From the NCBI GenBank assembly GCA_010093605.1, contig MU004188.1, positions 65,673-129,672 on the forward strand: a DNA stretch of 64,000 nt, in the 5' to 3' direction. A program made the position numbers and the translations under genes. Under the pieces are notes generated by a model, which saw only the letters and a list, made by a program, of their open reading frames with translations, ran no database searches and was not told the DNA's origin. Below are positions 28,152 to 54,205 of this stretch, piece by piece; the stretch's first letter is position 1; every line of letters begins with the position of its first letter. Origin of the DNA: Lophium mytilinum (taxonomy: Eukaryota).

Positions 28152-29126
28152 TTTCTTGCGTTGAAAGACCTGCGTAAGAAATCGAAACCAAATCAGGCAA
28201 CAGGAACAGTGTTAGTGTACTGAAGATAATGTGAGTGATGCTGCATTCAAATCATGCATTTCCCGACTCTAGATGAGGATGGTTATGAGGCTGCACCGAG
28301 TCTGGGGTGGCGGAGTCTCCTCAACACCCGCACTCTGCATCTCGTTTAGTCGAAAGATATTGGCCAATGAAAGAACGCGGATTTTACGCCCGGCTATATT
28401 TAGTTGCTCTTCGGTTGTTTTTCTCCAGCCTTGCAGCTACTAACGTTCACTTTCCGGTCAGATCGACCGTTTTGCTGCACCTCGTGTTCTGCAATTTGCT
28501 TGGAAATAGCCGCTTTTGGGAAGGCTTGCAGCTGTCGGGCCGTAAAGAGCGGGGAAAGCTCGTAACAGGGCGTTCAACGTAGATGATGGGCCATTTTCGC
28601 AAAAGCATAAATCCAGCCTGATCTTTTTGTTCAGTCAATTATACTCTTCACAATGATCCGTTTCATCATCTATTGGCTCAGCTCGAGTCTCCTAGTGCAA
28701 AGCAGTTCGATGACTGATTGACTAGTGCGATCAATAAGCGGTTTCTTGTCTTGTGATGTGATGAAGAGGTATTGTGGTGCGTGTCACTCTATGGAAGGGG
28801 GCCTATGCAGCCTGCCAACCTTTCTTTATCTTGGTAAAATTGTGAAGTTTCATCCATCCCTATTCCATCCAATGGTCTAGCAAATGGGTCTCGTTTTGTT
28901 TTCGCCGATCTCTTAAGCAGTCGAAGAACGTCGGCCTCGACGAAAGCTCGGGGTATCCGTTGAGAGCCGGACTCAAATCTCCTAATCTTCAGAAGTCTCT
29001 GCTGTACTTCTGAGCTGCATTCGAATAGCCTACCTGTGCCTGCTAGAATCTGTAAGTATATCATTAGGGCAGTTTTTGTGTCTAAACTGATATATCCAGA
29101 CCGAGCGACAAGACGAATTTGAAACA

Positions 29127-30778: not shown

Positions 30779-33700
30779 CTAATTCGACCTCTCTTGCTCC
30801 ATTTGAAACCTCGTCAAAAACCTGATATCATCGACCCCTTTCCGCTTCGTCTCCTCACTCTCACCATCTTTCCCATCCTCTAACCCCTCAACCCCCCATC
30901 CTCCTCCTCCGGGCGTATCGACAACAAACCAATCCCCTCTACCGACCTTGAAATCCTTCCTACCACCCACTCTGCACCACCTCCTCTTCCCGCCCTCCAT
31001 CTTTTTCGCGAGGAAATTGACCCCATTCGCGCCCTGCCCACCTCCTTTCATTCCATAAGGCCTGACCACCCTCCGCTCACTGACAACGCTCATCCCCATG
31101 TCCTTTCCGAACTCATACACCCTCCTGATCCCGTTTCCGCCATTCCATTTACCGCGTCCACCACTTCCGTCCCTGATCTCGAATTGGCGGAGCACGACAG
31201 GGTAGCGCTTCTCTAGAATCTCCGGATCCGTGATTCGCGTGTTCGTCATATGGATATGCACACCGCTCGTCCCATGCCACCCGGGTCCCGCGCCACTCCC
31301 ACCGCAGATCGTCTCGCCGAAGCCGAAACCAGAGTGCTCGGCGTCGCCGTCGTGGCCGAAGGAAACAACGTTGCAATCGCCTTGGCTGGCAGCGCAGGCT
31401 TCGAAGGCTCGGATCACGACATCGGTGACACGCTGGCTGGTAATGGGATTACCCGCGCACACAGCAGCAGTGGCGGAGGGGTTGAGGATACTGCCCTCTG
31501 GAATTGTGAATGTGAGGGGGCGGAGACAGCCTTCATTTAGGGGGATGTCTTGCGCGATGAGGCAGCGGAGAACATAAAGGGTAGCGGAGCGAGTGATTGC
31601 GGCTGGTGCATTGAAGGAGTGGTAGCCTTCCTCGCCTGTGCCTGTAAAGTCGAAGTGGGCGGATGCGGTGGTAGGGTCAATGGTGATGGTGAGGGCGATA
31701 GGGGTGCCGTCGTCCATGTAGTCGATGGCTGTTAGAGGCTGCCCTTTGCGTTCGGCGTGCGTACGGAGAAGGAAGGCGCGGACGGCAGATTCGGCATTGG
31801 AGGTGATGGCGCGCATGTTGAAGTGAACGGTTTCGAGACCATGTTCTCCTATCAAATCCGTAACCAGAGCAGCTCCTTTGGCATTAGCGGAGACTTGAGC
31901 TTTGAGATCGTTGAGGTTGTCGGCGAGGTTGCGGGTGCCGCTGCAGCCGGGGAACTGGGCTGGGTCATGAAGAAGTAGCTTTCGCATGCCCTCTTCGTCG
32001 AACTGCCCATCGCGGACAAGGAAATGAGATACAATTGTCGCGCCTTCTTCGAAAAGCTCGACACTGCCTGCCGGCATAGACCCTGGGAGTATACCGCCGA
32101 TTTCCTGGTGATGGCCTCGTGAAGCTGTGTAGAAAATAATCTCTTTGCCATCGGCAGAAAACACAGGCGTGATCGTAGTTATGTCTGGTAAGTGCGTTCC
32201 TCTGATGTATTGTTAGAATAGGTCTGGTAAGTTACTAGAGTCACAGGCTGGCTTACCCTGCAATCGGATGGTTGGAAACAACAACATCGCCAGGACGGAG
32301 TTTTCCTTCGTAGAGCTTGTGTTGATACATGACTGCCTGCTCCATGCTTCCCAAATGTACGGGCACGTGTGGAGCATTTGCAACCAATCGACCATCGGGG
32401 CTGAAAAGAGCACAACTGAAGTCCAGTCGTTCCTTGATGTTGACAGACACTGAGGTCTTTTGGAGGGCGTGACCCATCTGCTCCGCGATTGACATGAACC
32501 GATGAGCCATAACAGAAAGCTGAACGGGATCGACAACTCTGCTCGAAATATCAGACGTGGTTTCCGATACAGCACTCTTCCGATCAAGCTCGATAACTAC
32601 GTGGCGGTCGAGTATGATGGCCTTGGACTTTGGGCTCACGACAATTGTCTGGGTATCATCTAAAATAATGGCCGGCCCGGGGACAAGATCTCCAAGAGAA
32701 AGCGTTCCAAGAGTATACAGAGGCGCGGTAGACCAACCGTCCTCAAAATACATCTTGACGTTATCTACCGTTTTCTTCGATGATACAGGCGTAGGGGGGA
32801 ATTCGGATAGGTGCTTGCTCAGCGTAAAGGCGGGCTCAATCGATGGACTCCTTGCGGTAGCACGAACTCGTACGTCCTCAACTAAGACATCTCTACCAGG
32901 CATGATGAATGAGAACTGCCTCTTGTGCTCAGCAACAAAGGCCTCGGCAAAAGTCGCCGACTCGGGTCGTTGAATCATGAAAGTCGTGTCCGAGCCGGCA
33001 TATCGTAAGTTGAGGAAATGTTCAAAGCTCATAAGCTGCTCTGGAATTCCCTCGTGAGAAAGACTTTCGATAGCAGTCTTTTCGAGATTCGCAAGGCGCT
33101 GATCCAACTCTTCTAATGAGGTTGCGAGATTGGCAGAACACGGTTCTTGAACATCGTGAACGAGGTCTGCCAACGCCATACCGTAGGCCGATAGAACGGA
33201 CGAGTATCTGTGTACGAGGATCCGATCGATGCCGAGATTCGAAGCAATGGCCTGATGATATTTAGTGACGACGTTGAGCGAGAATGAGAAGGCTTACGCA
33301 AGCATGCTGTCCACCGGCTCCGCCAAATACTGCGAGATCATGATCAGACGTTCTGTAGCCCTTAGCCTCTGTAAGAGCCCTGATGGGCCGACACATGGTC
33401 TCATTGGCCACTTCAAGGAACCCAAGGGCGAGGTCTTCGATCGATTTGATCTTTCCGCCTGATGCTTCAAGGTCTGCGTTGACCACAAGTGCGAGTTTCT
33501 GGAAAGCTTCGCGAGCTCCCTCGTAGTCGAGGGGCTCGTTCTCACCCTTGCCGAATATATTTGGGAAGTAGTTGGCTTGTAATCGACCCAACACAAGATT
33601 GGCATCCGTGACAGTCAATGGGCCTCCCTTACGATATGCTACAGGACCTGGATGGGCACTGGCCGATTCAGGGCCAGCTAGAAAGAGACCGTTGCGGTAA

Positions 33701-34944
33701 GACAAAATACTCCCACCACCTGCCATGTTTTAGTGAACTATAAATCAGAAAATGTGGGGTGATAATACCTGCAGCAACCGTATCAACTTCAAGCTGAGGC
33801 GACTGAATTGTAATACCCGCCGTCATTGACTCAAAAGTATGTTCAAGAGTTCCAGCAAATCTCGAGACATCAGTGCTAGTACCGCCCATGTCGAAGCCAA
33901 TGATGGGTTTCTTCCTCTCCAAGTCGTAGCACGTGCGGCTCATGCCCACCACGCCCCCAGCCGGACCAGATAGAATAGCTTTGAGGCCGCTGAACTTCTG
34001 CCACCCAACCAAGCCACCGTCACTCTGCATGAACTCGCACCTAGCCCCCTTAGTGTCTTCGAGGTCGCCAACAAAGCCTTTCCTGAAGCCATCTACATAT
34101 GTGCGCGTGAGCGGAGTCAAGTATGCATCAGCAGTAGCTGAATAGCCTCTCGAGACAGCTTTGATCATAGGGAAGATTTGCGAGGAGAGCGAAATCTGGG
34201 TGAAGCCGATGTCTGAAGCGATCTTTGCGAGTTCGAGCTCATGGTCGGGGTAGGTATATGAATGCAGCAGTACCACAGCTAAAGACCTAACACCGGAATC
34301 GTAAAGCTGCTGTAATCCCTCTCTTGATTTTTTGATGTCTAAAGGTCGGAGAATTCGAATTGGCTCCCCTGAGAGCCCTTTCCGTAGATCGTACGCCTCG
34401 CCCTCAAGTGGGAATATGGGTGCCGCGTCCTCGGTGGCTGTATGAAGAGTAACTCGCTCGTCGATTTCCAGCACTTGTCTGAAGAGAGTCTCAGGTCTTC
34501 GGATGTTGAGATCGAACAGCCGTGGACGTGTTTGGTCACCTATGCGAAGAAGATCCTTGAATCCCTTGGTAACTACCAGAGCGCAGGGCGTCGACGAGCG
34601 CTCTAGTAATGCGTTCGTGGCCACAGTTGTGCCCATCTTGATACTTTCTACACCACTCAGCACAGGTCATACAGAATCAGCATTCTACGCCTTTGCTCAC
34701 CTATCCCGCTGGTATCAATTTTCTGCCCTCGAGGTAACTGTGTCCCTGTCGCAGTCTCCAGAATCCGTCTAATACCCTCCGTTGGCGCATCTGCGTAGTT
34801 GGCGGGGTCATTGCTCAGCAGCTTAATGAGGATATCCGGCTTTCCGGGAACGATGCCTAGACAGTCCGTGAATGTTCCTCCGCGGTCAATGGCGATTCGG
34901 ATGCGTGAAGCTTGGGAGCTCCGTCCATCATCTACAAAAGGCAT
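30779..34944 (-). CDS. 5-oxoprolinase/hydantoinase family ATP-dependent lactamase, about 1320 aa, 5 exons
   Basis: Exons 34944-34701, 34647-33769, 33719-33298, 33251-32257 and 32201-30779 splice in frame at GT-AG sites. Motifs [51 protein letters not shown] and TPGGGG. Confidence 0.95.
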
Positions 34945-35152
34945 GTTGGGAGTTGATCGATGAATAGTTCTTAGGCCAAAACAGTACCAGAACAGTTGAA
35001 GGAGAAGGAAAACGATGAGAGTTCAAAGGCTATGATACTGATATTTGAAAGTACTTCCCAGTGGGCAATCCACGCAGCCCTCGAATAAACCAACAACTCG
35101 TCCCTCACACGGCGCTACAATTCGCTGATGGGCACCAAAGCTCTGCTCGAGA

Positions 35153-35168
35153 CGGAAGCCCGCCTCCG
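35153..35168. promoter_or_regulatory. Putative Zn2Cys6 site CGG-N10-CCG (oxoprolinase/aminotransferase divergent promoter)
   Basis: CGG AAGCCCGCCT CCG; a second N10 match lies at 35292-35307. Confidence 0.45.
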
Positions 35169-35488
35169 CCCACCAGGCTGCATGATGATAACGACGACAG
35201 GGGAGCTCTGGAGGTGACAGGGTGGAGACAAGGTGGAGGGTTGATGGCAGCGGGGAAAGCTGTCGTCGGAGTTTCTTGTGCGAGGGTCGGGCGGGCATCC
35301 GCCGCCGCTCTCCACCTGCACCCAACCTCGACCATGTCGCGTCTAAACAATGCCCGAAAGCCTTAGGACACTATCGCCCCGAGCCATGCCATTATGACGC
35401 TCTTTTGAGGGGCCATTGAGGCCATGAAAGAAGCTCTGGTAAACACCACGCTTTTGTCCAATCTTCCTCAACATCACCCATCACGGCC

Positions 35489-36971
35489 ATGCTAACCCCA
35501 ATCAACCTCCAATTAGGCTGGCCATCGCCCTCTCTATTCCCCGCCTCCTCCCTCCTCGCCGGCGCGTCTACTGTCCTCACCGACCCCTCCAAGGTTGCAA
35601 GCGGTTTGATTTACGGCCCAGACGAGGGATACCTCCCTCTACGAAAGAGCGTCGCCAAATGGCTCTCTTCGACGTACGCTCACGGGAATGCTACACCAAA
35701 CTTTGAGCGGATATGCATCACGAACGGCGCATCGGGGAACTTGGGGAACATACTTGCAAAGTTCACAGATGCGAGGTACACGCGGAGGATATGGATGGTC
35801 GAGCCCTCGTATTTTCTAGCGTGTCCAATATTCCACGACGCGGGATTCGAGGGCAAGCTGAGGGGCGTGCCCGAGGACGAGGAGGGGTTGGACATTGACT
35901 TCCTGCGTTCCAGTCTCCAAGAAGCCGAGGACGAAGTCAAGAAGACCGGCGGCGAGGATGTCCCATTGCTGAAAGGCGGCGCTGGGTACGCGAAACTGTA
36001 CAAGCACGTCATATATCTCGTTCCAACCTTCTCGAATCCTTCGGCGAAGACGTTGAGTTTGCGACGGAGAGAAGAGCTGGTACGTCTAGCGAGGGAGTTT
36101 GACGCATTGGTCGTCACGGATGATGTTTACGATGTCCTCCGCTGGCCTGAAGACCCCAATGCCTCGGTGAGCAAGCTGGGAAAGCCGCCGCCAAGAATTG
36201 TAGACGTGGATACAACCTTAGATGGCGGTCCGGTAGACGAGTGGGGGAATACCGTGAGCAATGGAAGTTTCTCCAAGATCATTGCGCCGGGGTGTAGGGT
36301 GGGATGGGCAGAGGGAACTGCAGCTTTTGCTAAGCAGTTGTCACAAGTGTGAGTACTTCCAAACTGGGTGCGATTGAGGCTGCAATGCTAATACTTACTC
36401 TAGTGGCTCAACACGCTCTGGCGGGGCACCCAGCCATCTCGTCCCGACTTTCGTCCACGAAATGCTGGAAAATGGGTCATTGGATAAGCACATCGCCGAG
36501 ACACTCGTCCCAATTTACCGTGCTCGCTACTACGTCCTCATGGATGCTATCCGAGAGCATCTCGTGCCTCTAGGCTTCGAGCTCTCAGTAGGAAAGCCAT
36601 ACGAAGCCTCTCTCAAGAATGCCAGCAAAACCAACGGTACAAACGGTATCAATGGCACGAATGGCGTCCAACAGAACGGCACATCGAGTCCCATCCGAGA
36701 GGCAGGTGGCTTCTTTACCTACCTTCTTCTCCCCTCCGATATCCCCTCCGCAAGCGATCTCTCTGCGAAGGCACTGGAGAAATACGAGCTCAAGTTCGCC
36801 TTCGGAGACATGTTCCAGGTCGCTGGTGATGTTGGCAGCGCTGAAAGGGCTGCGAAGGGGTACGGAAGAGGCATACGGCTGTGCTGGGCGTGGCATACGG
36901 AGGATGATATCAAAGAGGGGATACGGCGGTTAGCTATGACTGCACAGGAAACGAAGAGTGGGAAGGCGTGA
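35489..36971 (+). CDS. PLP-dependent class I/II aminotransferase (Aro8/YER152C/AADAT-like), 1 intron
   Basis: YGPDEG, ITNGAS, PTFSNP, DDVYD and the PLP-Lys motif SFSKIIAPGCRVGW; C-terminal IRLCWA. Confidence 0.93.
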
Positions 36972-37680: not shown

Positions 37681-38733
37681 CTACTTCAAAACCGGCCTCG
37701 ACTTCGCCTCAATCCTCCCACTCCTCCTCGTCTTCTCCTTCGTCGACTTTTGCACACCCCGGGGTTTCGATGCTCGCGCGGCCTTGATTGGCTTGTGAAT
37801 GCGCTGTATATTTGATCCTGCTGTGCGAGCGAAGAACTTGACGACCATCTCCGCCGCCCTCAAGCTGTCGTCGTCCGCGTCAATTGCTTCAAGCGCCTCG
37901 TCGATCCTAGTGTCGTCCCACCCGGCTATTGGACCAAAGACTTTGATCGTTTCCGAGTTCACGAATCTATCGAACTCGAAATGGCCCTGGAAGGTGAGGA
38001 CGCGCGAGGGTTGGTAGACGCCCTGGCAGTGGCAATGTGGCGTGCTGCCTAGCAGGACCCAATCCGAGGGAAGGGAAGACGAAGCGGGAGAGTGATGGGA
38101 TGGGGTGAGGACGACGTGGTCCGCGTGGACAAATTGGAGGCGGAGCGTCGAGGAGCTCGCGGCAGGGAGCTCTGCTGGGAGCGAAGACAGAGGGGAGGGT
38201 GATGGAGTGTCATCGGGGGTAGGAACTTGCTTCACTTCTTTGGCCGTCTTATTCACGCCTTCTGAATTTGATTCTGGGAACACCCCTAGGAACTCTTGAG
38301 CAAGCCTGATCTCGTGCACCCCGACCTCCCACCCGCTCCCATCCCTTTCAACCCTCACGCCATAGTCCCTCAGCAGGCTCTGACACACGATCTGGTGCCC
38401 AAAACAACTTCCGAAGATCTTGATCTGAGGGTAATTGGCATAGATGAACGATATCCAAGTGTCGAGTTGCTGTACCCAGGGGTCCTTGTCATATGACGAG
38501 GCAGCGGAGCCGGTGATGACGATGCCAGAGAGGGTGGAGAGAACGGTGGTTGGGGGATATTGGCCGGATACGACGTCGTAGGCGGTGGTAGTGATAGTGG
38601 GGTAGGAAAGTCGAGATGATGCGTCTTGCAGGAGGGATGTGAAGATATTGCTGTAGAGGCCGCGTTTAGCCAACACTGTGGGCACGGGGTTGTCCGTGTC
38701 TAGGATGGCGATATGGAGGGGTGGAGGGGCCAT
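37681..38733 (-). CDS. Class I glutamine amidotransferase-like hydrolase (gamma-glutamyl amide hydrolase-like), 350 aa
   Basis: ITGS, nucleophile elbow GSCFGHQ and QGHFE give an intact Cys-His-Glu triad. Stand-alone, with no synthase domain. Confidence 0.9.
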   Translation of the reverse strand: MAPPPLHIAILDTDNPVPTVLAKRGLYSNIFTSLLQDASSRLSYPTITTTAYDVVSGQYPPTTVLSTLSGIVITGSAASSYDKDPWVQQLDTWISFIYANYPQIKIFGSCFGHQIVCQSLLRDYGVRVERDGSGWEVGVHEIRLAQEFLGVFPESNSEGVNKTAKEVKQVPTPDDTPSPSPLSSLPAELPAASSSTLRLQFVHADHVVLTPSHHSPASSSLPSDWVLLGSTPHCHCQGVYQPSRVLTFQGHFEFDRFVNSETIKVFGPIAGWDDTRIDEALEAIDADDDSLRAAEMVVKFFARTAGSNIQRIHKPIKAARASKPRGVQKSTKEKTRRSGRIEAKSRPVLK

Positions 38734-39201
38734 TGTAAGATAGTATTTCTCCTTAGGTTCCGGAATGATGCTCTCAACATAGAGTATGGAAAGATAGAAT
38801 TTGACAGATATACGCAGCGTAGATAGATTATGTGAGCACTGGCACGTGACGTATCGATATATACTCAGCGATGAAGCTTCTCAGAGATGGGAGAGTGCCC
38901 TCAAAACTTGAGGTTGTATAACTTTCAAGATAGAGATGTTAGACAGCGATGGCAGTAATAGGCATTCGTAATAGGAAAGATTGCGCCAGAAAAACAACTC
39001 TTGTGCCTTCGAACACCAACAAGCACGCAGTCGCTACTTTTCGTGAGTCCATCATCAACCTCATCCCGAATGTGCTTCCCCATCGCACGTCCATCCGAAG
39101 CCCAGCACTCCGGATCGCAATGGTAACCAGAATTCGAGGTTGCAGGCGAAGTCGCCGATAGGAGAAAGCGGCCGAAGAGAGTGCGACGGCGCAGCTCAAG
39201 A

Positions 39202-39647: not shown

Positions 39648-41339
39648 ATGGACGACTCTAAAGACACCAAGATGACTATCAACCCGGGTGACGCAGGCGA
39701 TGCCGAGTCCATGAAGCATGGCTATATTTCCAACGACGTCGACATTGCTGCTGCTTATGCAGGCCAGCTCGATGGCGAGAATGCCTATACCCGCAAGGAA
39801 CAGGTTCGGCTGAGATGGAAGCTAGACTTGCGACTTGTGCCCCTGTTGTGGTTCAATGTCACCTTGGGTGCCATGGACAAAGTTACCACATCGACTGCTG
39901 CGCGTGAGTACGGAGAGAGATGACTCAGTTTCGCAATTGCTAACGGGGTCTCAGTCTACGGGATGAAGAAAGACTGCAATCTTACTGGTGATCGATACAG
40001 CTGGGTTGGCAGCGCCTTTTACGTAGGTGTAGAAAGAAGATATCAAGTCTGACAATTGCTAAATGGGCCATAGTTTGGATATCTCTTTTGGTGTCTCCCG
40101 TCCGGAAGTCTTCTGCAGCGATTTCCCATTGCGAAGCTGATGTTTGTGGCCCAATTGCTTTGGGGTGTCATTCTCATCGGCACGGGGTTTGCCAACAACT
40201 TTGCGACCCTCATTGCTCTTCGCGTCCTACTGGGTGTTCTGGAGGCTCCAATTGTCCCTGGTAACTTCTTAGTTCTTGGAATGTGGTACACTCGCAGAGA
40301 ACAGCCCCTCCGCACAGGTCTCATGTACACTGGCCTTTCCGTCTGCTTTACTGGGCCGTAAGTTCAAAATCACTTCTCTCACCATTCTGGATTCGTCTAA
40401 TAAACCCCTAGTATTGGCTACGGTATTGGTTTCATCGCCGGCGACCACGCATGGAGATCTATGTTCTGGATCACCGGTGCCATGACCATCGTTTGGGCCG
40501 TCATCATCGGTGTCTTCCTCCCCGACAATCCTGTCAACACCACGTTCATCAACGAGCGCCAAAAGGCTATCTTAGTTGAGCGACTCCGCGCCGACCAGAC
40601 CGGTGTTGAGAACAAGACTTTCAAGCGCGAGCAGATGATCGAAGCGCTACTAGACCCGAAGACTTGGCTCATGTTTCTCTTCAACATCTGGATCTCCATT
40701 CCCAACGGCGGTTTGACGAACTTTGCTCCACTCATCATCAAGGGGTTGGGCTACACCTCTCAGCGTTCAGTGCTGCTCACGATGCCTACCGGAATCATGC
40801 AGACCGCCAGCTCGTACATGTGCAACGGTGGCGTTTTCCTCTGCGCAAAGTACCTCCCCAAGTACCAGCTCCGTGGCGCCTGGGTAGCCTTCGGAATCAT
40901 CGTGGGCCTGATCTCATCCGTCTTCCTCTACACGCTGCCACTACATAACTACAACGGTCGCCTCGCAGCCCTTTACATGTCTTACTTTTACCTCGGACCT
41001 TACATCGTCGCGCTCGGTATCAACACAGCCAACACGGCAGGCCACACAAAGAAGGTCACCACCAACGCGCTCATCTTCATCTCCTACTGCGTCTCCAACA
41101 TCATCGCGCCGCAATTCTTCAAGGCTGAGCAGGCACCGCTTTACCCGCTGGGTATGGGTGCTATTCTTGGAAGCTATGTGCTAAGTCTGATTACGATTGC
41201 GGCGTACTGCGGATACTGCAAGTGGGAGAATACTAGGAGGGATCGGGTTGATTTGGCGAAGGATGCGAGGGTGCATGCGGATACTGATTTCAAGGACTTG
41301 ACGGATAAGCAAAATCCCCATTTTAGATATGTGTTTTAA
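39648..41339 (+). CDS. MFS anion:cation symporter, Dal5/allantoate permease family, multi-exon
   Basis: KLDLRLVP, MDK, YSWVGSAFY, LRVLLGVLEA, WYTRREQPLR, LPDNP, NTAGHTKK and FKDLTDKQNPHFRY. Confidence 0.93.
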
Positions 41340-41620: not shown

Positions 41621-43714
41621 TCAGCCCCGGAGGACTTCCATCGCAGCTTCTAGAATTTTTTTCTCGGCTTTCAGCATCGATCGACAGCGCTTTGTCTCTC
41701 CATCTTCCCCGGCAATCCTCTCAAGCTGATCGTCGTCAAGACCCAGGATCAGCTCCGAGCTGAAGACCTTCAGTGGGCTATCGTCTCCCTCAAGGAGGAA
41801 GTGACTGATAACCTGCCTGCACACGACATCTACGAATCGCTTTCTGGATACCTTGTAGTAGCTCATGAGAATGTCAAGAATATCGTCTCGCACCTGCTGG
41901 GCGTTGTCTTTCGCCTGATTCAGACGACCTTGTCGCTTCTTCTGAACTTCCGCATTGAAATAGTGGTTGTATGTGGACGGCCTTGCGTCTCGTTCAATGC
42001 GCAGCAGAAACCGGGCTTGCTCCATCGCTTGGACATAAGCCTTACGAAGCTCATCGAGAAGGATGTCCTCCCATAGCTGTTCACGGACCTGCCTCTCGGT
42101 GCAGATATGAGCCAGAAGCTTGTAGATATAGTCGTGCACGAGCGCGATCGATTCGCTGACGTGGGCAAGGACGAGCGGTTCCCATTTCTCGGATTGTTCC
42201 TTGAATGTGATACCAAGAATCGCGCTGGAGAAAGTCCCTAATTCTGACCCACGGTTCGATTGGTACACCATATCGATGTGATCCAAGATTGAAATACTAC
42301 CGAACGGTGGCAGTCGGAACGCTGTTGGTTGCGGGCACCTGTAAGCGTTGGTATCAAGGATGTCGTGAAGTTCAGGGTAAGTCGAAATTGGAACTTCGAA
42401 GGGTACGTTTCCTTCTCCGACCTCAGCTGCAGTTGCGTCGTATGCTTTTTCTCCTTCGTCATCCCACTTGACCGAAAAGTGTCGCTTGTGCCCTTTCCTC
42501 CAGAAGTCGTTTGCAAATCGCTCATTACTCTTCGTAATATTCGTGATAAGCTTCAAGCCTGGAAGTTCTGTGAAGACACTTTCGCTGCTGTAGTACCCGT
42601 TCAGTGCGCACTGGGTAATCGCCTGGAATCTGGATCCCAGTCTCCCGAGATACATCCTTTGAGAGCTCTGCTCCGTACGAGACGGCCCCATTTTCTCCAG
42701 CTCTTCTCGGCGCTGACGCAATTGCTTTCCAACATCGGCCTTGACATGCGGAAATTCTTTCTTCGAAATGCTCATGAGGAGATCCTGGAGCCGGGTCTTG
42801 AGCGATCCAATGCCACACCGTCCGGAGCTTTCTATCCGTTGCCACCGTGGCTCCCTAAAGAACGTTTCTTCCTTGGCCAGTCGCTCTGCCTTTGTGGAAT
42901 GCTGATCATCTGCACTGCGGTTCTTCACAATACCGTACCCCAACTTCAGTGGGTTCCTTCTCCCGAGAACAAGCTCCATGACCGCATCTTGCATGGCGTT
43001 CTCAGTTACCAGATCAGGTTTCGTGAGCACTCCCATGGTTCTCGTTCCGCCCGGATCAGCAACTTCTGCCATTTTCAGGATCTCCTGGGTGGTAACATCG
43101 ACGTTAGATGGGAGGACCGCTAAAATGACAGTCCGGCTGTTCCCCATGTATGACTCCACTATGGTTTTGACCAAAGCAACATCGCTATCTGTAGTAAGAG
43201 GCGGAGATGAGACGCGAAATATGCCGGGCACATCTATTACCGTAAAGTGCTCTTCGTCAGGTCCACTGATCTCGATCTTGAGGATGTCCTCGCTGAACGC
43301 TTGTAGGCCAGAGTCGGTGTCTTCTGCCGTCATCCTGATTCCCATGACTATGTTCGCCTCCGCGATGATGCTACCAAGGCCTTCGTTTTCAAGATTTGAG
43401 ATGTTTCGCTTGAACGCCCGAAGTCGAATATCCACCGCGGCATCTGCACCTGGTCGGGGAATAATAGATACCACAACCTTCTTCTCAGACTCACGACGAC
43501 AAGAAATCTGTGTGGCATAGCGGGTACAGAGGCCGGGAGCTTGAGGGAAGGAAAATCCTGTTAGACTCTCCAAGAGTGAGGACTTTCCAGATGACTGATC
43601 ACCCACGACGACAAGCTGAGGTAAATCTATGGTCTTGACATTTAATTCGCGTAGCTTGTCGATTTTGTTGAGATAGGACTGGTTGGCCAGGCCGCGCGAG
43701 CTACTATCTCCCAT
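41621..43714 (-). CDS. Mx-like dynamin-family GTPase, intronless
   Basis: LPQLVVVGDQSSGKSS (G1), CTR (G2), DVPG (G3), TKPD (G4) and GED SYYKVSRKRFVD. Likely start MGDSS at 43714; the ORF is open from 43921. Confidence 0.92.
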   Translation of the reverse strand: MGDSSSRGLANQSYLNKIDKLRELNVKTIDLPQLVVVGDQSSGKSSLLESLTGFSFPQAPGLCTRYATQISCRRESEKKVVVSIIPRPGADAAVDIRLRAFKRNISNLENEGLGSIIAEANIVMGIRMTAEDTDSGLQAFSEDILKIEISGPDEEHFTVIDVPGIFRVSSPPLTTDSDVALVKTIVESYMGNSRTVILAVLPSNVDVTTQEILKMAEVADPGGTRTMGVLTKPDLVTENAMQDAVMELVLGRRNPLKLGYGIVKNRSADDQHSTKAERLAKEETFFREPRWQRIESSGRCGIGSLKTRLQDLLMSISKKEFPHVKADVGKQLRQRREELEKMGPSRTEQSSQRMYLGRLGSRFQAITQCALNGYYSSESVFTELPGLKLITNITKSNERFANDFWRKGHKRHFSVKWDDEGEKAYDATAAEVGEGNVPFEVPISTYPELHDILDTNAYRCPQPTAFRLPPFGSISILDHIDMVYQSNRGSELGTFSSAILGITFKEQSEKWEPLVLAHVSESIALVHDYIYKLLAHICTERQVREQLWEDILLDELRKAYVQAMEQARFLLRIERDARPSTYNHYFNAEVQKKRQGRLNQAKDNAQQVRDDILDILMSYYKVSRKRFVDVVCRQVISHFLLEGDDSPLKVFSSELILGLDDDQLERIAGEDGETKRCRSMLKAEKKILEAAMEVLRG

Positions 43715-44326
43715 TGCTCGAGAGAAGGCGAGAAATAAGGGACGAGAAGTACCTAGGCCTAGAGAAGCTAGCCGTGGGGTGGAGAGATGAGAAAGCATGT
43801 TCAATACGCCACTTAACATTGAAGCTATAAAGGCATTTCCCATTGAGAGCAAAACACGCCCTAAGTTTGCCAAAATCGCTTCAACTATCAAACGAACTCC
43901 AACCCTTTCGGTTCCATACATGTTTCTACCTTTCCGGAAGAGAGTAGTAGTAGCGAATCTTAGCTAAGGGAAACATTTCATCTCTAGATTGTAGGAGTGT
44001 TTTCTTCCAAGGAAAAGAAAACCTAGCAATGGCAAGGAATATTGAGTTGTCTAACGGCATGGACCTAAGTTTGTGAAGGAGAGCACTCACCTAGGTAGTA
44101 GCCTGCAAAAGAGGTGTTGTTACGGAAACCAGAAATTAGCTACAGATCTGCGAAATTCCCACCACCAACTCCCAAAAGCCTTAGCCCCTTCTCAACTACC
44201 CGTAATTCCCAAACGACGTCGCAATCTTCGGCATCTCTCCCGCCCCGCAGCGCGCTCGCCACGAGGTCGGTCCCAAGCCCAGGGTCCCGGCCCACTCCCG
44301 TCGCACGAATCGGCCCTGTTCCTAGC

Positions 44327-44354
44327 CTCCATCGGACTCCCGAGTCCGATGGAG
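44327..44354. promoter_or_regulatory. Perfect 13-bp inverted repeat containing TCGG-N10-CCGA, upstream of the ICL-like gene
   Basis: CTCCATCGGACTC-CC-GAGTCCGATGGAG, about 260 bp upstream of the ATG at 44614. Confidence 0.6.
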
Positions 44355-44613
44355 CCTGCGGTGCTATCACGGATACCAACAACGCGACCTCGGGCAAAGC
44401 GACGCGTTGAGATAGGAAAAGAATGGAGAAATGGCGGGGGCTCATAACAATACCTAGCGAATAGCGAATATCAATATACTATAGTGCCCCTCACTCACCC
44501 CTCATCACCTCATCGCCCCTCATCACTCCAGCATTTCAATGCTCTCCAAGCTTACATCCACTATATTCAGAACCTCAGACCCAGAAAGTAAAGCTACAGA
44601 CGCAAACAACACG

Positions 44614-46371
44614 ATGCCGAAACTAGCCATCTCTGTGGAGCAAGAGCAGGCGGCGTTTGAGGAAGAGGTCAAGGCGATCGAGAAGCAGTGGAGTGAGCGG
44701 CCGCATTTGAAACGGTAAACCCTCCAACCCTTCGCCATGATCTATGCTGCATGTACTGATGGATGTAACTATGAAGCCCATACACTGCCCGGACAATCGC
44801 CGCACTCCGCAACACCATCCCCCAATCCTACGCCTCAAGCGTGCAAGGTCGAAAACTCTGGAACCAACTTAACGCCCACAATGCCGCTGGGACGTGCGAA
44901 CTGACCTTCGGCACCACCGACCCAGTCGTCGTGTCCCAGATGGCGAAACACCAGCAGAGCGTCTACGTCTCCGGCGCCCTCTGCGGCTTCAGCGAAGTCT
45001 CCTTCCCCGGCATGGATGCGTGCGACTACCCGTGGGACACTGTTCCCAAGGTCGTGAAAAAGGTCTTCTCGTCGCAGCTGTGGCACGACCAGCGGCAACG
45101 CCAGTACCGGATGCGCCACCCAGTCTCCGAGCGCGCGGAGCTGGAGAATTGGGACTACCTAGCGCCGATCGTAGCGGACGGGGACATGGGTTTCGGGAAC
45201 TTGACCAGCACGATGAAGATGGCGAAGGAGTTCGTGGAGAGTGGGGTAGCGATGATCCATTTGGATGATTTGGCGATTGGGATGAAGAAGTTCACGGTTG
45301 GACAGGTGAGCTTCCCAGAATATACTTACCGAGCTCTGGGACTAATGTTGAGTTTATAGGGACGAACCGTGGTGCCTACATCCGAGTACTTGGATCGGTT
45401 GAAGGCGGTACGGATGCAGTTCGATGTTATGGGGTAAGTTTTTGATTTGAAGCGTGAAGATTGATATGACGCTGACTAGTGTGAATAGTGCTGATACGCT
45501 TCTGTTGTGCCGTTGTGACATCGACCATTCCGAGTTCATCTCCAGTGTTGTAGACGCCCGCGACCACGAGTATGTGCTGGGTGCCACTCGGCAAGTGCGG
45601 CCACTCAAGGACGTGCTTGCGGATGCGCAGGCTGTTGGCGAGGACCTTAAAGTGGTCCGTAGTGCATGGAAAGCATCTGCTGGTCTTCTCACCTACGATG
45701 ATGCCGTCAAGGCGCAAGCCTCTGAGGACCAGTTCAAAACATACAAGCTGGAGTTGTCGAAGGCTAACCCTTCGATCGCCTCCCGCCGGGAGATCGCGTC
45801 AAAGGTCCTCAGCAAGGACATCTTCTTTGACTGGGAGCTGCCGCGCTCTTATGTTGGCCAGTATATGTTCGCGCCAACGGTCAAGACCATCATCGAGCGT
45901 GCGATTGCTGCTGCGCCCCTCGGAGACGTCACCTGGGCTCGCATGGACTCGCCTGTCTGGAAGGACATCGTTGAGTTCCACACCGAGGTTCGCAAAGTCT
46001 TCCCAGACCGACTTTTCGCTTTTGGTTACACAGGCGATTATGACTACGGAAAGGCTGGTTTCTCGGAGTCCGCAATCAAGACGCTGCATCTAGACTTGGC
46101 AAAGCTAGGTGTCGTGTGGCAAGTCCAGCCCATCTGGAGTCTGCAAGGGCTAAATCTCTTGACGGAGCAATTCGGCAAGCTGTTTGCAGAGGAAGGTATT
46201 GCGGGCTACATCCGGACAGTGCAGACGCCGGCTTTAGCTACGAAGCCAATGACCGACGGGTTTGAGAAGCTAAGCTACTGTGGTGGATATCTGGCAGATG
46301 CGTTCTTCGAGACGGTGGCAGGCGAGGAGATAGTCGAGAAAGGGAGTGCGCCAAACACTAAGAGGCATTGA
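44614..46371 (+). CDS. Non-canonical isocitrate lyase-family protein, 4 exons
   Basis: Exons 44614-44714, 44777-45305, 45360-45433 and 45489-46371. ICL-like segments FEEEVKAIEKQW..KRPY, YVSG, DYPWDTVPKVV, DYLAPIVADGDMGFG, RDHEYVLGAT and IFFDWELPR. The catalytic loop reads KKFTV. Confidence 0.88.
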
Positions 46372-46560: not shown

Positions 46561-48986
46561 TCAAGTCCATGAATCGTAATCAAAGATACCTGGAAACGAA
46601 GGCATCTCCGCATCGAAAGCATTGGCCCCATCAATACTGTAAAATTGCGGCGCTGAGAACGGCATCTCGAACGTCATATGCGTGGGTGGCGGAGACGGTG
46701 GCGGACGGCTCAACTGGGGCGTCGGCATGATGCTTTCTCTCATGGCGGACTCCCTCGGCCCAGGAATGGAGGATACAGTCTGTAGCGGCGTGCTTTTCGG
46801 CCGTGGAAAGTCGTCCTCCATCATTTCCTCGATCATTCGCATGACGCTTCGATGCACAATTAGACAGCGCACATCAGGGAGAGCTTCCCGGAGCTTTGTC
46901 GCTGATTTGTCTGATATCCGCACCGGTGGTCTGCTAGGGCGATCAACGCTGAAAAGCCACGTCAGTAGAATTCGCAAACGAAAGATGAGCAATGTTGCCT
47001 ACAGAGGTATCTCTCGTGCTAGTAATTCAAAGACGTCTCGCAGACAGTCTGCCTTCGGCCAGCGATCGGCCATGATTGCGAGAATGTTGGAACACGCTCG
47101 GAGCGCGTCAGATACGTCGGGAGAATCGTAATTATCTGTCCGACACTGGGGCGGGGTTGCCCAAAAGCAGTATAGAAGAGTTATGCCCGCTTGGAATTGC
47201 ACCAGTAGCTGATTTAAGATTAGAGACTAGCGATACATCGTTACGGTGGTGAGAACTTACTCCAAGCCAAGCTGTCAAGAGGTTAGCATGGTCAGATAGA
47301 TACTGGAAAGGGTGAGAACATACGTTGGGCGATTTGCCGGTCCATTTGCGTTTTGCGGAACATGAGGCAAGCTTGACTAGACGCCTGCACCGCAAAATCT
47401 CCCGCCGGGCCTATTACGTTTTGCTTGGTGGGTCGATAAAGCATGACCAATGTATAGTGGTAGATCATAGCAAGCCACCTTTGACTGGTGTATCCCTTAG
47501 ATCTCGAGTCTGAAAAGCTTTGTACTTGAGACTTCCAATTGTTCAGTTCAGTAAGAATCCGAATCCGCCATTCCGGCGAGGACTCGAATTGCGCGGCATA
47601 GTTCCAGTGCAGTGTGTAGCCTAGGATCTCGGACTGGATTCGCCTGCATTGAATGATATGCAATGAAGGCGAGACACAGGTATATCCGGGACTATCAGGT
47701 ATATCTGCATCTGCCGGCGTAGTAGCTGTAAGCTGCAGAAGATCCGAATCCTCTACGTTCGCATAGACCTTTGCTGTAATGGTACTGTCTGGAATTGAGG
47801 TAGGGAGGTCAAAAGAGAAAGAGGCCAACCGATCGAGCTTATAGGCGCACCAAAAGGTCCTCCGCCGTAGCTGGTTTTGTAGGTGGATGGTCGCGTTGAT
47901 CGGTTCTGGCTCCATTTCCGCGAGATGAAATTGCGCTTGCACGCAATAACGAATGATAGTTGAAGAAAGGGACATGATACGATCCGTAGAGCTTCTGTGC
48001 AATGCATGCATCGCCATGACCAGGTAGGCTTGAATCTGCAGGATATGATCGCCTTGTCTGAGTACGGAAGGCAGGAGGGTGACGCCTTGTCGATAGAAGA
48101 TCTGAGAGTCGAACTTCCCCACCCGAGGTATTAAAAGTAGCGCAGTCGCATATACCATATTGACAAAGAAGCCTTTCCATGCCTGACGCCCATAGTCGCT
48201 AGGCGGACATGTCTTCCAAGTAGAATGCCAGAAGAGGAACGTCTCCCAATGGAAGAAGGGATACTGAGCTTGAGCTCTTTCGTGGTAGGCATCTATGAGA
48301 AGCTCCTCTACTTCAAGTGGAAGCTGAGCCACAAGGCTATGTGGTAGGAAGGTAGCCTTAGTGGAAGATACGTGGTGGAGATTTGGAGAGTCCGCAAGTG
48401 CAGCGTCGTCCCGTGACGCAGCTGGCGATGTGACGAGTCCTAAGATAAGATGGTCCAGATCGGAATCATCGTCAAGACCAAGATTCGAAACATGTCGCAA
48501 TTGGGCTTCATTAGACATGGTAGATATGCGGGTATTCGTAGCACTTCGGGATGTCGATGCTGGAGATTCAGCAATGTGGAAGTCGCCGGGCGATTCAGAG
48601 ATGACTTCTGACGGCGCTGGACCAACCATGCCATTCGAAGCTGACCGCTCCAAGTTACTGGTTGAAGGGCGGTTCTGGTGATCGGCCAGCTGGGCTCTTG
48701 CATCGTTCAAGAGGGATGACCGTCTTCGAATATGATCAAGACTCTGCTGCGGATCTAGGGCTTCCAATTCGGCAATACGTTCCTCGAGGGCTCGAATGTA
48801 CTCCCCTTCAGCATGGCCTCTTGGGGCAGGCTCGGTGGCGACGCACTCTTCTCCAGACTTCCTGCAGTTCCTACATGGCCGACTCTCATCACACTTCTGC
48901 TTTCGGTGGCGGCATCTCTTGCAGGCTAGGGTGCGGGCCCTCTTCGCTGGCCGCGAGCTGTCCGACTGCGATTCCTCATGATCCAT
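46561..48986 (-). CDS. Zn2Cys6 transcription factor with fungal-specific TF domain (Ppr1/UaY-like architecture)
   Basis: CKRCRHRKQKCD..PCRNC..C, coiled coil YIRALEERIAELE and RRRTFWCAYKLDR; short 3' introns. Confidence 0.92.
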
Positions 48987-49632
48987 AAGTGTTGGCTGGG
49001 TATGTGGGCAAGAAGAGGGGGCACATGTTGCAGGTACTGGTGCTGGAGAAGGGTCCACTCGTTATCTTCGGATCCGCTAGCATATATCGAGAGTCGGTCC
49101 GATGAGGGGAAGCTGAAGTCGCTTTCTGTTCATCAGAACGTGACACCGCGAGTACGTCGCCTAATTAGACTTAAGAACCCATTGCTGGAATCTGATAATC
49201 TGTTTGAAATAATACATTTGAAGCCTAAGTCTGCTAAGAACCACTCTCACGTGACCCGTCGATCGAGCATGGAGCTTTCCGTCCGACTCCCAGCTTCAAC
49301 CTCAACTGCACATCGACCACCGTCTGCTCTCCTAGCAGTTCCACCCAGCGCTTCCAATGCCGCGGGATTTGACAATGGAGCTTCCTCCTTGAGGCTTTGA
49401 GGCTCCCTACCTGGCTGTCTGTTCCATTGCCTTGCTCGTTTTGCCATGCAATGGCCAGAGTTCCGCGCGTCGCCTTCACAACACCGTAGCTTCGAGTCGC
49501 ATCCATACCTCGAACATGCCCCTATGTATCTTCACGGATTCTAATCCGAGGATACGTAACGCGAAGGCCTAGGAGCGATGACCACGATGGTCAGAATGGG
49601 GTCCCTCGAGGCTCTCCGCAAAGGTACATACA

Positions 49633-51748: not shown

Positions 51749-54205
51749 TCAGATTATGGTTATAGTCCTAGTCGTCCACGGATCGAAAAAGTTCATCTCA
51801 AAATGAGCATCATTATGAAAGGGCTTTGATTCGCTATCCCATGCGTTCTGTACAGGAGCCACTCGAAAAAATCCAACCCTCTGAAATCGAACTTTGTCTT
51901 CGCTTCCGATGACAGTAGAGTAATCTCCACCGTCAGCTTCGGCATGCAGGTCAGCCGTGCGTCTTCGATCAAGCGATGGCGGGAAGCTTCGGGTATGCTC
52001 GGGCGGCTGAGAAGTGGTGGCCAAATTAGTGTGACCGGTGATCACGCCTTTTAGAACGAGGCCGAAATAATTTGTGCTATGGAAGTCAGGTCCGTGTTCC
52101 CTACAGATCAGCGCTAGATGAAAGTTAGCTGTGTTCTTGAAAAGGGCTTCCAGATCCGAATTCGTGAGACACTCCATCTGAATTTGCACCTGTGCCCAAG
52201 ATTCACCTTCAAAGGTATAGATCATGGTAGTCCCGAAAGAGTCTGTTTGCGTTCTTTCTGCCTCGAGTTGTATCTCCTCCGTCCCATGAACTCTTGTTCT
52301 TAGTACTAACTTACCACCAGTCACTTCACCGGAGGGATCGTCTTCGTATCCTGGAGTTGTTTCCGCGTGAATAATTTCGCACTTGGGTTGTAATTTATTT
52401 TCCTTAAGGAACAAAGTTATGGAGTAATTAACGGGTAGTGGACAGGAAATCTAACACCAGGACGGCGCCAGGTAGGCTTCCGCTGTCAGTGCGGTTAGGC
52501 TAGACATCTGAGCCCCGTCGTTCAGATTGTGGTCAACCAGCCAGCCGAGACCGCATATCAAGTCTTTCCTCCAAAGACCTGCCAGGTATGTATCTGTATT
52601 CCAGAGAGTGCTTTGCTGCGCGAGCCCCGAGATCGCTGGGAGTCTATCTTGTGGGTAGGTCAACTTTCGGCGAGAGTATCTTTCCATTGTCGCGTACCAT
52701 TAGTGATATGGTTGAGATACGTAAAATTCAGGGATATCTTCGTCGCTATTCGCAGGAGGAGGCTCAACTTCCCGGTCCCAGCGGTGATTTGACTGCAGGC
52801 TTTCCCCTGCATGTCTCATCTCGTCCAGTCGGTAGTCGCATCGCACCGATCGTATCGATTCGAAATGAACCGTGGATTTGGTGAATATAAGGGCCCGACG
52901 GGCGAGGAATCTTTCCTGAAAGGTCCAGCCTCTTTTATTCCACTCCGACTGGTCAACTTCTTTCTGTTGTTGAACCGCAAACGAGGACTGAGGACGAAGG
53001 TAGACATGGCCTTTTATTGCGTGCTGACTTGAAACATACGGTATTTTGGCAACGCGCGGTACTTCCCTTTCCAGGAAGCCTTCATGGCAATTACTTATCC
53101 TGGCAAGAGCAACAACTAGATCCGCATTGCGGTATACATCTTTCATGGATGCAACCTCTGTTTTACAGTCCACCTCGTCATCCTGGACGATGCATAAAGA
53201 ATCTATCCATAAATATCGGTAATCGAGCTTTCTCAAGAGAGAAACTACTTGCTGGAAAGCCAAAGGAAGAGTGTGCCAAGGTATTCCAGATGCCCGTGAG
53301 TGCAGATTTCCTCGCTTGGTTTTCGGCGGATGCTTGGATTCGGAACCACCCCAGCAATAACTCAGTGCAACATAGTGGTTGATCTCAGCATCCTCAGAGT
53401 ATGTCATGTCGACGAGTCGCACCCCGGAAATAGAACCTTGGGACCAATTACTGTCCATGTCCAGGAGTCTGGTAGGGCGACTCGCATCTTTCCGGATACC
53501 TTCTTCAGGTTGCTTGCAGGCAGATATCCAGTCTTTGATGGAGCTCAGAATAGCCGGAGAAGAGGCATCTTCTACACTAAGGATCGAGTTCAGATTGAGA
53601 TATTGAGTGATAGGGTCATCGGCTAGCGGTTCAGTCAACATCAGCAGGGCTGTACGGGGTTGCAATTACTTACCCGACTCGCCTACAATTTCGAATTCGA
53701 GTTGATTTGCGAGAGTTTGTGTTAACCTCGCTTTTTGCACTCTATACCAATTACTACTTTCTTTGGGCACGTATGGGCCCAAAATACGAATATACGCACA
53801 GAACCCAGAGCCAAGAAGAGCGCCGCAAAGCTGATGTTTGACAAACATGTTTATATCCTCACATCCGAGCCATTCTATCTGTACTTTCTCCGCGTGCTCG
53901 AAGTGTTCATCCAGCCACTTCAATGTGGATTCCTTGAGCAATGCACAGAGGTCGCACCCTAGTTCCGCGGAAGCAGACAGCAAAGGAAGGCCTGGAAAGG
54001 TATCTGATCTTTGTCGATGCGAGCTAACATCCGCAGACATGAAGTGCGAGTGCCAGAAAGACAGATCAATTTCTCTTGCTGTGCGAGTGCCGGCCACGCT
54101 TAGAGCCTGTTCCTGCTCGAAAGATGCTTCTCCTTGGCCGGAGAAATCCTCGCTGATTAATGCTGCTTTGCAGAACGCACACAACTCGTGGACGCGGGTT
54201 TCCAT
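51749..54205 (-). pseudogene. HET domain pseudogene
   Basis: Motifs PTRLLD, YVALSYCWG, YLWIDSLCIVQDD, RGWTFQERFLA and DRLPAISGLA. In-frame TAA at 52702-52700 and TAG at 52453-52451 (APSWC* where APSWSW is expected). Confidence 0.85.

Follow-up and report, generated by a model that had tools for sequence, protein, structure and literature searches.

A fungal isocitrate lyase homolog lacking the catalytic cysteine, encoded in a conserved gene cluster of Lophium mytilinum and related fungi

The stretch of Lophium mytilinum DNA analyzed here, referred to as the window, spans 64,000 nucleotides (assembly GCA_010093605.1, contig MU004188.1, positions 65,673 to 129,672 of the forward strand) and contains, at 44614..46371 on the forward strand, a gene for a homolog of isocitrate lyase (ICL; EC 4.1.3.1) in which the catalytic cysteine is replaced. 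Around this ICL-like gene, between 30.8 and 49.1 kb, lie genes for several enzymes, a transporter, and a transcription factor. The gene has four exons, all on the forward strand, separated by three short introns with GT..AG borders (44715-44776, 45306-45359, and 45434-45488). Exon 1 (44614..44714) opens with the start ATG at 44614; exon 2 (44777..45305) encodes SGA, GMDACDYP, IVADGDMGFGN, and the loop IHLDDLAIGMKKFTVGQ; exon 3 (45360..45433) begins GRTVVPTSEY...; and exon 4 (45489..46371) carries RCD, WARM, FGYTGDYDY, and WQVQPIW before the stop TGA at 46369-46371. The codons for KKFTVGQ, the counterpart of the KKCGH loop of ICL, occupy 45285..45305 on the forward strand at the 3' end of exon 2, and the loop motif is split by intron 2, with GRTVVP following on exon 3.

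Splicing the window sequence in silico gives a product of 528 amino acids with no internal stops. An annotated protein of the same length from Mytilinidion resinicola (P0005) aligns to it without gaps over 528 of 528 positions at 97.2% identity; the splice model is confirmed because P0005 matches the spliced product end to end. The single sequencing run found to contain the locus reads unchanged through all three introns and is therefore genomic DNA. An earlier note, made from the letters of the window alone, had described an ICL homolog reading KKFTV for KKCGH, with an intact frame and splice sites. Both parts of that description are borne out, as every motif quoted there is found in the spliced product, and the uninterrupted frame, the GT..AG introns, and the gapless match to P0005 agree with the proposed gene structure.

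Family assignment is likewise clear at the level of individual exons. The ICL family profile PF00463 matches exon 2 (E 1.5e-52), exon 3 (0.005), and exon 4 (7.9e-43), with scores of 179.2 bits for exon 2 and 147.2 bits for exon 4 against a cutoff of 26 bits. The closest solved structures are fungal ICLs (5e9h, 5e9g, 1dqu, 7ebc, and 7ebe), and identity to fungal ICL is about 35-40%. Membership in the phosphoenolpyruvate (PEP) mutase branch, which includes oxaloacetate acetylhydrolase (OAH), dimethylmalate lyase (DMML), PEP mutase, and PalA, was considered and rejected: the product has 528 residues, as compared with an architecture of about 300 in that branch, and the corresponding profile, PF13714, did not match any of the window exons at E ≤0.01, PF00463 alone being reported. 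In precomputed domain lists, PF13714 does appear as a second domain match for many relatives of the protein. The N-terminus of the window protein is acidic and, judged by eye, unlike a mitochondrial presequence.

The alignment to canonical ICLs separates two sets of active-site residues. Canonical rows read SGW, TGHGG, EDQ..KKCGH, ARTD, WMET, YNLSPSFNW, and WQFITLAG; in the ICL-like protein SGW is replaced by SGA, TGHGG by MGFGN, EDQ by DDL, KKCGH by KKFTV, RTD by RCD, WMET by WARM, NLSPSFNW by GYTGDYDY, and FITLAG by VQPIWS. The column of the catalytic Cys is occupied by F206, within a loop that reads K-K-F-T-V as against K-K-C-G-H in ICL. The columns of the succinate contacts hold GYTGD, VQPIW, Val (for the loop His), and Arg (for the Glu of WMET); we take the succinate-binding roles to fall to the NLSPS motif, the Thr of FITLAG, the His of KKCGH, and the Glu of WMET. 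Replacement of the Trp of SGW by Ala or Gly should, to judge from the alignment, enlarge the pocket beside C2.

Residues that serve the metal and the carboxylate are, by the same alignment, kept: D114, D168, D170, D197/D198, K204, K205, and R243. The columns of D108, D153, E155, E182, and R228 of Mycobacterium tuberculosis ICL, as placed by motif, correspond to D114, D168, D170, D197 (a Glu-to-Asp change), and R243, all invariant or nearly so among relatives of the window protein. The M. tuberculosis enzyme uses Cys191 as its catalytic acid and has Asp108 and Arg228 in its catalytic core; the C191S and D108A variants are inactive (PMC7609661). Substrate preference is set by a pair of residues, Phe455/Thr457 in Aspergillus fumigatus ICL and Leu/Ser in 2-methylisocitrate lyase (MCL) (PMC10534831); in the ICL-like protein this pair is Val447/Pro449, the columns being assigned from the conserved W-Q-F-I-T motif. 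These comparisons suggest that the half-site for Mg2+ and an alpha-oxy or alpha-oxo carboxylate has been conserved and that the half which binds succinate and protonates its carbanion has been rebuilt. Cleavage of isocitrate or 2-methylisocitrate is not expected because the Cys, its loop neighbors, and the contacts of the succinate half are all exchanged, and normal ICL or MCL activity thus appears very unlikely.

The overall fold was examined with an AlphaFold2 model of P0005, the 97%-identical ortholog, built with an alignment of 23 sequences. The model has a mean predicted local distance difference test (pLDDT) score of 86.5 and a predicted template modeling (pTM) score of 0.87, with low-confidence stretches at residues 113-117, in the MKKFTV loop (203-208), at 491-493, and at the C-terminal end. 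Foldseek comparison with fungal ICLs returned template modeling (TM) scores of 0.85-0.88 at 31-35% identity, including 0.88 for the Fusarium graminearum ICL (5e9h) and 0.86 for 1dqu; the M. oryzae methylisocitrate lyase MoMcl1 (8z1r) was also among the matches, at 31% identity. In the predicted structure, the eukaryotic-type ICL fold is kept.

Relatives, phylogeny, and selection

A search for relatives among longer proteins, with exon 4 as the query, returned 72 matches. Phe occupies the catalytic Cys column in 70 of them, comprising all of the close relatives, and the remaining two are canonical KKCGH proteins. Loops among the 70 relatives read KKFT[VINTAQS], KRFTV, or KRFSM. These proteins are distributed across Dothideomycetes, Sordariomycetes, and Leotiomycetes, with one Penicillium, Schizosaccharomyces pombe, and Yamadazyma tenuis; several species carry two copies of the gene. 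The names given to clade members by their sources include "isocitrate lyase" and "mitochondrial 2-methylisocitrate lyase", the latter applied to P0064, P0026, P0029, P0036, P0039, P0044, P0056, and P0074, and including the S. pombe protein.

Conservation within the clade was assessed in an alignment of 23 diverse members with a mean column identity of 64%. Several of the replaced positions are invariant in all 23: Thr and His have become M171 and F173, Gln has become L199, Cys has become F206, and the Glu of WMET has become R386. Equally invariant are D114, D168, D197, D198, K204, R212, R243, and D245, which are retained from ICL. The resulting clade signature comprises YVSG[AG]LCG, G-x-D-H-A-D-Y-P, ADGDMGFG, H-x-DDLA-x-G-x-KKFT-x-G-x-GRT-x-VP, L-x-RCD, TW[AS]R[MQ]D, FAFGYTG-x-YD[YF], and WQVQPIW.

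Selection was estimated from the codons of exons 2 and 4 in related metagenomic fungal loci, as the ratio of nonsynonymous (dN) to synonymous (dS) substitution rates. Among these loci dN/dS is 0.055 at dS 0.27 and 0.036-0.038 at dS ~1.2. Between the window and the related loci, synonymous sites are saturated (proportion of synonymous differences, pS, 0.72-0.81), and the usable figure is dN, at 0.19-0.20. The earlier note had proposed neofunctionalization as opposed to decay, an interpretation that would have been undermined by substitutions private to this genome or by dN/dS near 1. The substitution at the catalytic Cys is instead found in 70 of 70 relatives and dN/dS lies at 0.036-0.055; together with the clade-wide fixation of the other replacements, the confidently predicted ICL fold, and the conserved gene cluster described below, these data support the proposal well.

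Phylogenetic analysis was carried out on 97 rows under LG+G4 and on 54 rows under the LG+C20 mixture model with a quick search, both trees being unrooted. The KKFT clade receives a Shimodaira–Hasegawa-like approximate likelihood ratio test (SH-aLRT) support of 100 in both; the suggestion that KKFT marks a conserved clade is thereby upheld, and the clade stands apart from ICL and from the MCL-type group. In the mixture-model tree, the KKFT clade and a Cys-less group from Basidiomycota share one side of a 99% branch, while the opposite side holds the named fungal ICLs, five rows with the Leu/Ser signature (MCL-type), and other canonical rows. The five L-x-S rows (LQLVSLAG) form a group of their own on the canonical side (SH-aLRT 100) and are labeled MCL-type by this signature only. 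A working rule that KRCGH marks fungal MCL was dropped, as the KRCGH rows P0136 and P0145 carry the ICL-type F-x-T pair. If the root lies among the canonical sequences, the two Cys-less groups form a single clade, and the topology suggests that the Cys-less lineage is older than the split between Ascomycota and Basidiomycota.

The second Cys-less group of the ICL family includes proteins from Mycena, Roridomyces, Mucidula, Pseudohyphozyma, Kwoniella, and a Cryptococcus species (P0105, P0125, P0157, P0180, P0209, P0226-P0237, and P0289), with loops reading KKTGA, KKFKA, or KRHDG. These proteins resemble the KKFT clade in the absence of the catalytic Cys, in SG[AG], and in W-x-R for WMET; unlike the clade, they still read TGHG and DDQ, and their loops differ in sequence.

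The window protein can be placed with respect to the two established fungal enzymes in similar terms. It shares with fungal ICL (Icl1/AcuD) the PF00463 profile, the length class, and the eukaryote-type insertion, as well as the fold, the acidic Mg ligands, the two loop lysines, and the Arg of the R-x-D motif; it differs in the KKCGH loop and the succinate contacts and belongs to a separate clade. Fungal MCL (Mcl1/Icl2; MoMcl1 in structure 8z1r) is likewise of the same family and fold, and clade members are often named after it; however, MCL keeps the catalytic Cys and the Leu/Ser pair (PMC10534831), and the clade falls outside the MCL-type group on the tree.

The surrounding gene cluster

Families were assigned to the neighboring genes by Pfam and PDB searches of the window's open reading frames (ORFs). 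Upstream of the ICL-like gene, a class I/II aminotransferase dependent on pyridoxal phosphate is encoded at 35420..36971 on the forward strand (PF00155; two exons, ends approximate); its relatives in PDB are multi-substrate, 2-aminoadipate/kynurenine, and Aro8-type transaminases. A transporter of the major facilitator superfamily (MFS; PF07690) lies at 39651..41339, also on the forward strand, and is presumably of the Dal5/allantoate-permease type. It is 81% identical to the MFS half of P0019, a 965-residue gene model from Alternaria incomplexa in which an MFS transporter and an ICL-like protein are fused; most likely, this model reflects two adjacent genes on the same strand merged by annotation. 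Two further enzymes are encoded on the reverse strand. The first, at 30782..35022 (several exons, ends approximate), is a fused hydantoinase A/B of the 5-oxoprolinase-like type, a family of ATP-dependent amide-ring hydrolases, with Pfam matches to Hydant_A_N, Hydantoinase_A, Hydant_A_C, and Hydantoinase_B and a PDB match to N-methylhydantoinase at E 3e-22. The other, at 37681..38880 (ends approximate), is a class I glutamine-amidotransferase-like protein related to gamma-glutamyl peptidase 1 (GGP-like; PDB 9k7i, E 2.7e-7), in which the match to PF00117 is weak and the CFGHQ nucleophile motif is kept. Downstream, a Zn2Cys6 transcription factor (46561..49061, reverse strand; PF00172 and PF04082) is arranged tail to tail with the ICL-like gene. 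Between the transporter and the ICL-like gene, a dynamin-like GTPase with Dynamin_N and Dynamin_M domains is encoded at 41621..43963 on the reverse strand.

Scanning metagenome contigs for the pattern of the clade alignment recovered 27 fungal loci, in which every ICL-like gene that covers the loop has the KKFT-type sequence. At 90% nucleotide identity these loci represent 15 lineages, ten of them flanked by 5 kb or more on either side, and the window neighbors were searched against these ten by tblastn. The aminotransferase is found near the ICL-like gene (<5 kb) in all ten, at 53-68% identity to the window, and the transporter in nine, at 66-76% identity. The oxoprolinase-like gene is present in seven of the ten lineages, as is the GGP-like gene. 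Clear relatives of the Zn2Cys6 regulator (40-53% identity) lie by the ICL-like gene in four lineages, and weaker Zn2Cys6 matches occur in four more. Among the five lineages with short flanks, three show the transporter and/or the GGP-like gene; in the other two, whose flanks do not exceed 2 kb, no neighbor was seen. Relatives of the dynamin-like gene were found by tblastn in 0 of the 27 related loci, so that in this lineage it seems to have been inserted into the cluster.

A Pfam search of 95 ORFs from seven of the loci confirmed the cluster families. Gene order and orientation are variable: at least five orders occur, including that of the window, at least three in which the transporter and the ICL-like gene are divergently oriented, and minimal versions with aminotransferase, transporter, and regulator only. 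Linkage has therefore survived repeated rearrangement. Among named species, 20 have matches to both the ICL-like protein and the aminotransferase, and in 17 of these both proteins come from contigs of identical length and are presumably encoded on the same contig; neighboring or next-but-one locus tags are seen in four of the 17, namely Cosmosporella, Fusarium nematophilum, F. sarcochroum, and Stylonectria norvegica. The ICL-like gene belongs to a conserved fungal metabolic gene cluster of six genes, in which its tightest partners are the aminotransferase and the transporter.

Additional genes within 10 kb in the related loci include a phosphopantetheine-binding ORF (L007, 21118-21660, reverse strand), short-chain dehydrogenases (L017, 2603-3442, and L018, 245-1021, both forward), and an amino acid permease (L021, 3-1488, forward); none of these recurs across lineages.

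Possible functions of the ICL-like protein

Taken together, the retained and replaced residues, the phylogeny, and the selection estimates suggest that the ICL-like gene is functional, is under strong selection, and belongs to an ancient branch of the ICL family that lacks the Cys. We favor, with a probability of roughly 0.55, the reading that its product is an Mg-dependent enzyme of the ICL fold that does not cleave isocitrate and probably acts on a 2-oxo acid delivered by the clustered aminotransferase, as part of an undescribed catabolic pathway. Under this proposal, the cluster would import and degrade a nitrogen-containing organic acid, such as a lactam or a gamma-glutamyl or other amino-acid derivative. 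The GGP-like enzyme and the ATP-dependent, ring-opening oxoprolinase-like enzyme would unmask an amino acid, and the aminotransferase would convert the freed amino acid to a 2-oxo acid; the ICL-like protein would then bind this 2-oxo acid via Mg2+ and break a bond at C3 or next to C3. The leaving group would be an Mg-stabilized, pyruvate-type enolate, for which no thiol proton donor would be needed. A lyase or aldolase whose leaving group is a ketone enolate had been put forward in the earlier note, and this idea becomes more plausible because the aminotransferase is consistently linked to the ICL-like gene and would supply 2-oxo acids.

Several points weigh against this interpretation. The catabolic direction is assumed from the presence of the transporter and the regulator. 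Retention of the Mg and carboxylate residues is deduced from an alignment in which the M. tuberculosis numbering was placed by way of known motifs, and the catalytic loop (203-208) has a pLDDT below 50 in the model. The oxoprolinase-like and GGP-like genes are each missing from three of the ten well-flanked lineages and may serve a side branch; in three of the 20 named species (Verruconis gallopava, Paraphoma chrysanthemicola, and Dactylonectria macrodidyma), the best aminotransferase match is on a contig of a different length. Finally, a fully conserved pocket would be expected equally of a pseudoenzyme that senses a ligand.

Such a pseudoenzyme, which might bind a metabolite without catalysis and act as a sensor or co-regulator with the Zn2Cys6 factor, or else as a scaffold, is possible but in our view unlikely. 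Fungal catabolic clusters do recruit enzyme homologs as regulators, as in the repressor of the quinate cluster, and loss of the catalytic Cys, His193, Glu285 (now Arg), and all succinate contacts would be consistent with this role, as would the tail-to-tail arrangement of the Zn2Cys6 gene with the ICL-like gene here and in several lineages. However, the acidic Mg ligands never vary, nor do the two lysines of the loop or the R-x-D Arg, residues for which a pure scaffold would have no need, and the gene is linked most tightly to an enzyme, the aminotransferase (10 of 10 lineages), rather than to the regulator (clear in 4 of 10). Moreover, the PEP mutase/ICL superfamily offers precedents for 2-oxo-acid chemistry beyond ICL and MCL (PMC3266647, PMC8100219). 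The same gene set can also be read in reverse, as a biosynthetic cluster in which the ICL-fold enzyme extends a 2-oxo acid through a new C-C or C-X bond, the product is aminated by the aminotransferase to a non-protein amino acid, and the MFS protein exports that amino acid. Many fungal clusters that combine an MFS protein with a Zn2Cys6 factor are indeed biosynthetic, and a phosphopantetheine-binding ORF lies ~9.5 kb from the ICL-like gene in L007. We nevertheless regard this alternative as doubtful: no core synthase (polyketide synthase, nonribosomal peptide synthetase, or terpene cyclase) recurs in the seven loci scanned with Pfam, a spread over three classes of Pezizomycotina as well as yeasts is broad for a secondary-metabolite cluster, and an ATP-dependent ring-opening hydrolase together with an amidohydrolase suits degradation better.

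Continued activity as an isocitrate or 2-methylisocitrate lyase, with some other residue as the proton donor, would accord with the database names, the ICL fold, and the ~35-40% identity to fungal ICL. It is nonetheless highly improbable, given that a Cys-to-Ser mutant of a genuine ICL is inactive (PMC7609661) and that in this protein the succinate contacts are all replaced, the specificity pair is Val/Pro, and the clade stands apart from both the ICL and the MCL-type groups. The loss of catalytic residues might alternatively mark a decaying ICL duplicate on its way to becoming a pseudogene; this explanation is scarcely credible for a gene with an intact frame and splice sites, a dN/dS of 0.04-0.06, and the same substitutions fixed in 70 of 70 Ascomycota relatives.

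A degradative, Mg-dependent role on a 2-oxo acid, which we prefer, has a partial parallel in bacteria. The phosphonoalanine operon of Variovorax sp. Pal2 combines a transaminase, the phosphonopyruvate hydrolase PalA (a member of the PEP mutase/ICL superfamily), a transporter, and a LysR regulator (PMC3266647). As in the logic proposed for the fungal cluster, the transaminase yields a 3-substituted pyruvate that an Mg-dependent superfamily enzyme cleaves, and the regulator responds to the substrate (PMC3266647). PalA differs from the ICL-like protein in being bacterial and in belonging to the short PEP-mutase branch, outside PF00463; the likeness is one of gene-set logic and implies no phosphonate substrate. 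The fungal cluster further differs from the operon in its additional oxoprolinase-like and gamma-glutamyl-peptidase-like genes. Another superfamily member, PA4872 of Pseudomonas aeruginosa, is an oxaloacetate decarboxylase that acts on an Mg2+-bound 2-oxo acid (PMC8100219); it is also short, bacterial, and of another branch, and is likened to the window protein by description only.

A more specific and correspondingly tentative proposal, to which we attach low confidence, is that the Cys-less branch of Ascomycota and Basidiomycota could be the signature enzyme of an undescribed pathway that salvages a beta-substituted amino acid masked as a gamma-glutamyl derivative or lactam. Once the compound had been taken up by the anion-type MFS protein, unmasked by the GGP-like and oxoprolinase-like enzymes, and transaminated, the ICL-fold enzyme would strip the C3 substituent from the 3-substituted pyruvate so formed, via an Mg-bound pyruvate enolate. 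Bacterial phosphonopyruvate hydrolase might thus have an equivalent in eukaryotes, with the scaffold of ICL in place of that of PEP mutase. Should this be so, the fission yeast protein called "isocitrate lyase" would carry out this reaction and have no place in the glyoxylate or methylcitrate cycle.

A review of these enzymes distinguishes two fungal classes only, ICL and MCL (PMC10534831). Our search of the literature, with subscription journals largely outside its reach, did not return a description of a third, Cys-less fungal class or of its cluster; the same literature yielded no paper on S. pombe SPBC1683.11c and none on an ICL pseudoenzyme in fungi, and none of the papers returned on S. 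pombe ICL and the glyoxylate cycle addresses the Cys-less protein by its title or the start of its abstract. What appears new here is a widespread Cys-less class, misnamed in databases and tied to a previously undescribed gene cluster. The gene is present in hundreds of fungal genomes under ICL or MCL names, and metabolic models and pathogenicity studies that count ICL and MCL genes would consequently miscount them. If the favored interpretation is correct, this is a case of an enzyme family that has kept the half of its active site that binds the metal and the oxy acid and has rebuilt the other half for new chemistry. The cluster, with its transporter, its regulator, and three partner enzymes, would also provide a direct experimental handle on an unassigned fungal nutrient pathway.

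Other features of the window

At 44324..44357, ~260-290 nt upstream of the ATG of the ICL-like gene, is a near-perfect palindrome of 34 nt built around a CGG-N10-CCG core. It is a candidate regulator site, and the exact palindrome occurs once in the window. Of the 12 CGG-N10-CCG sites in the window, four fall inside three cluster promoters (1817 bp in total; post hoc Poisson p 4e-4), the others of these four being at 35153, 35292, and 39202. As a regulator site shared across the cluster family, CGG-N10-CCG was rejected: of 25 related loci, just 6 carry one in the 900 nt that precede the ICL-like gene.

Outside the cluster, GDSL-lipase-like ORFs at 26838-28211 (reverse strand) have weak Pfam matches. 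A questin-oxidase-like ORF is located at 24053-24718 on the forward strand, and an ORF with a HET (heterokaryon incompatibility) domain at 52700-53665 on the reverse strand.

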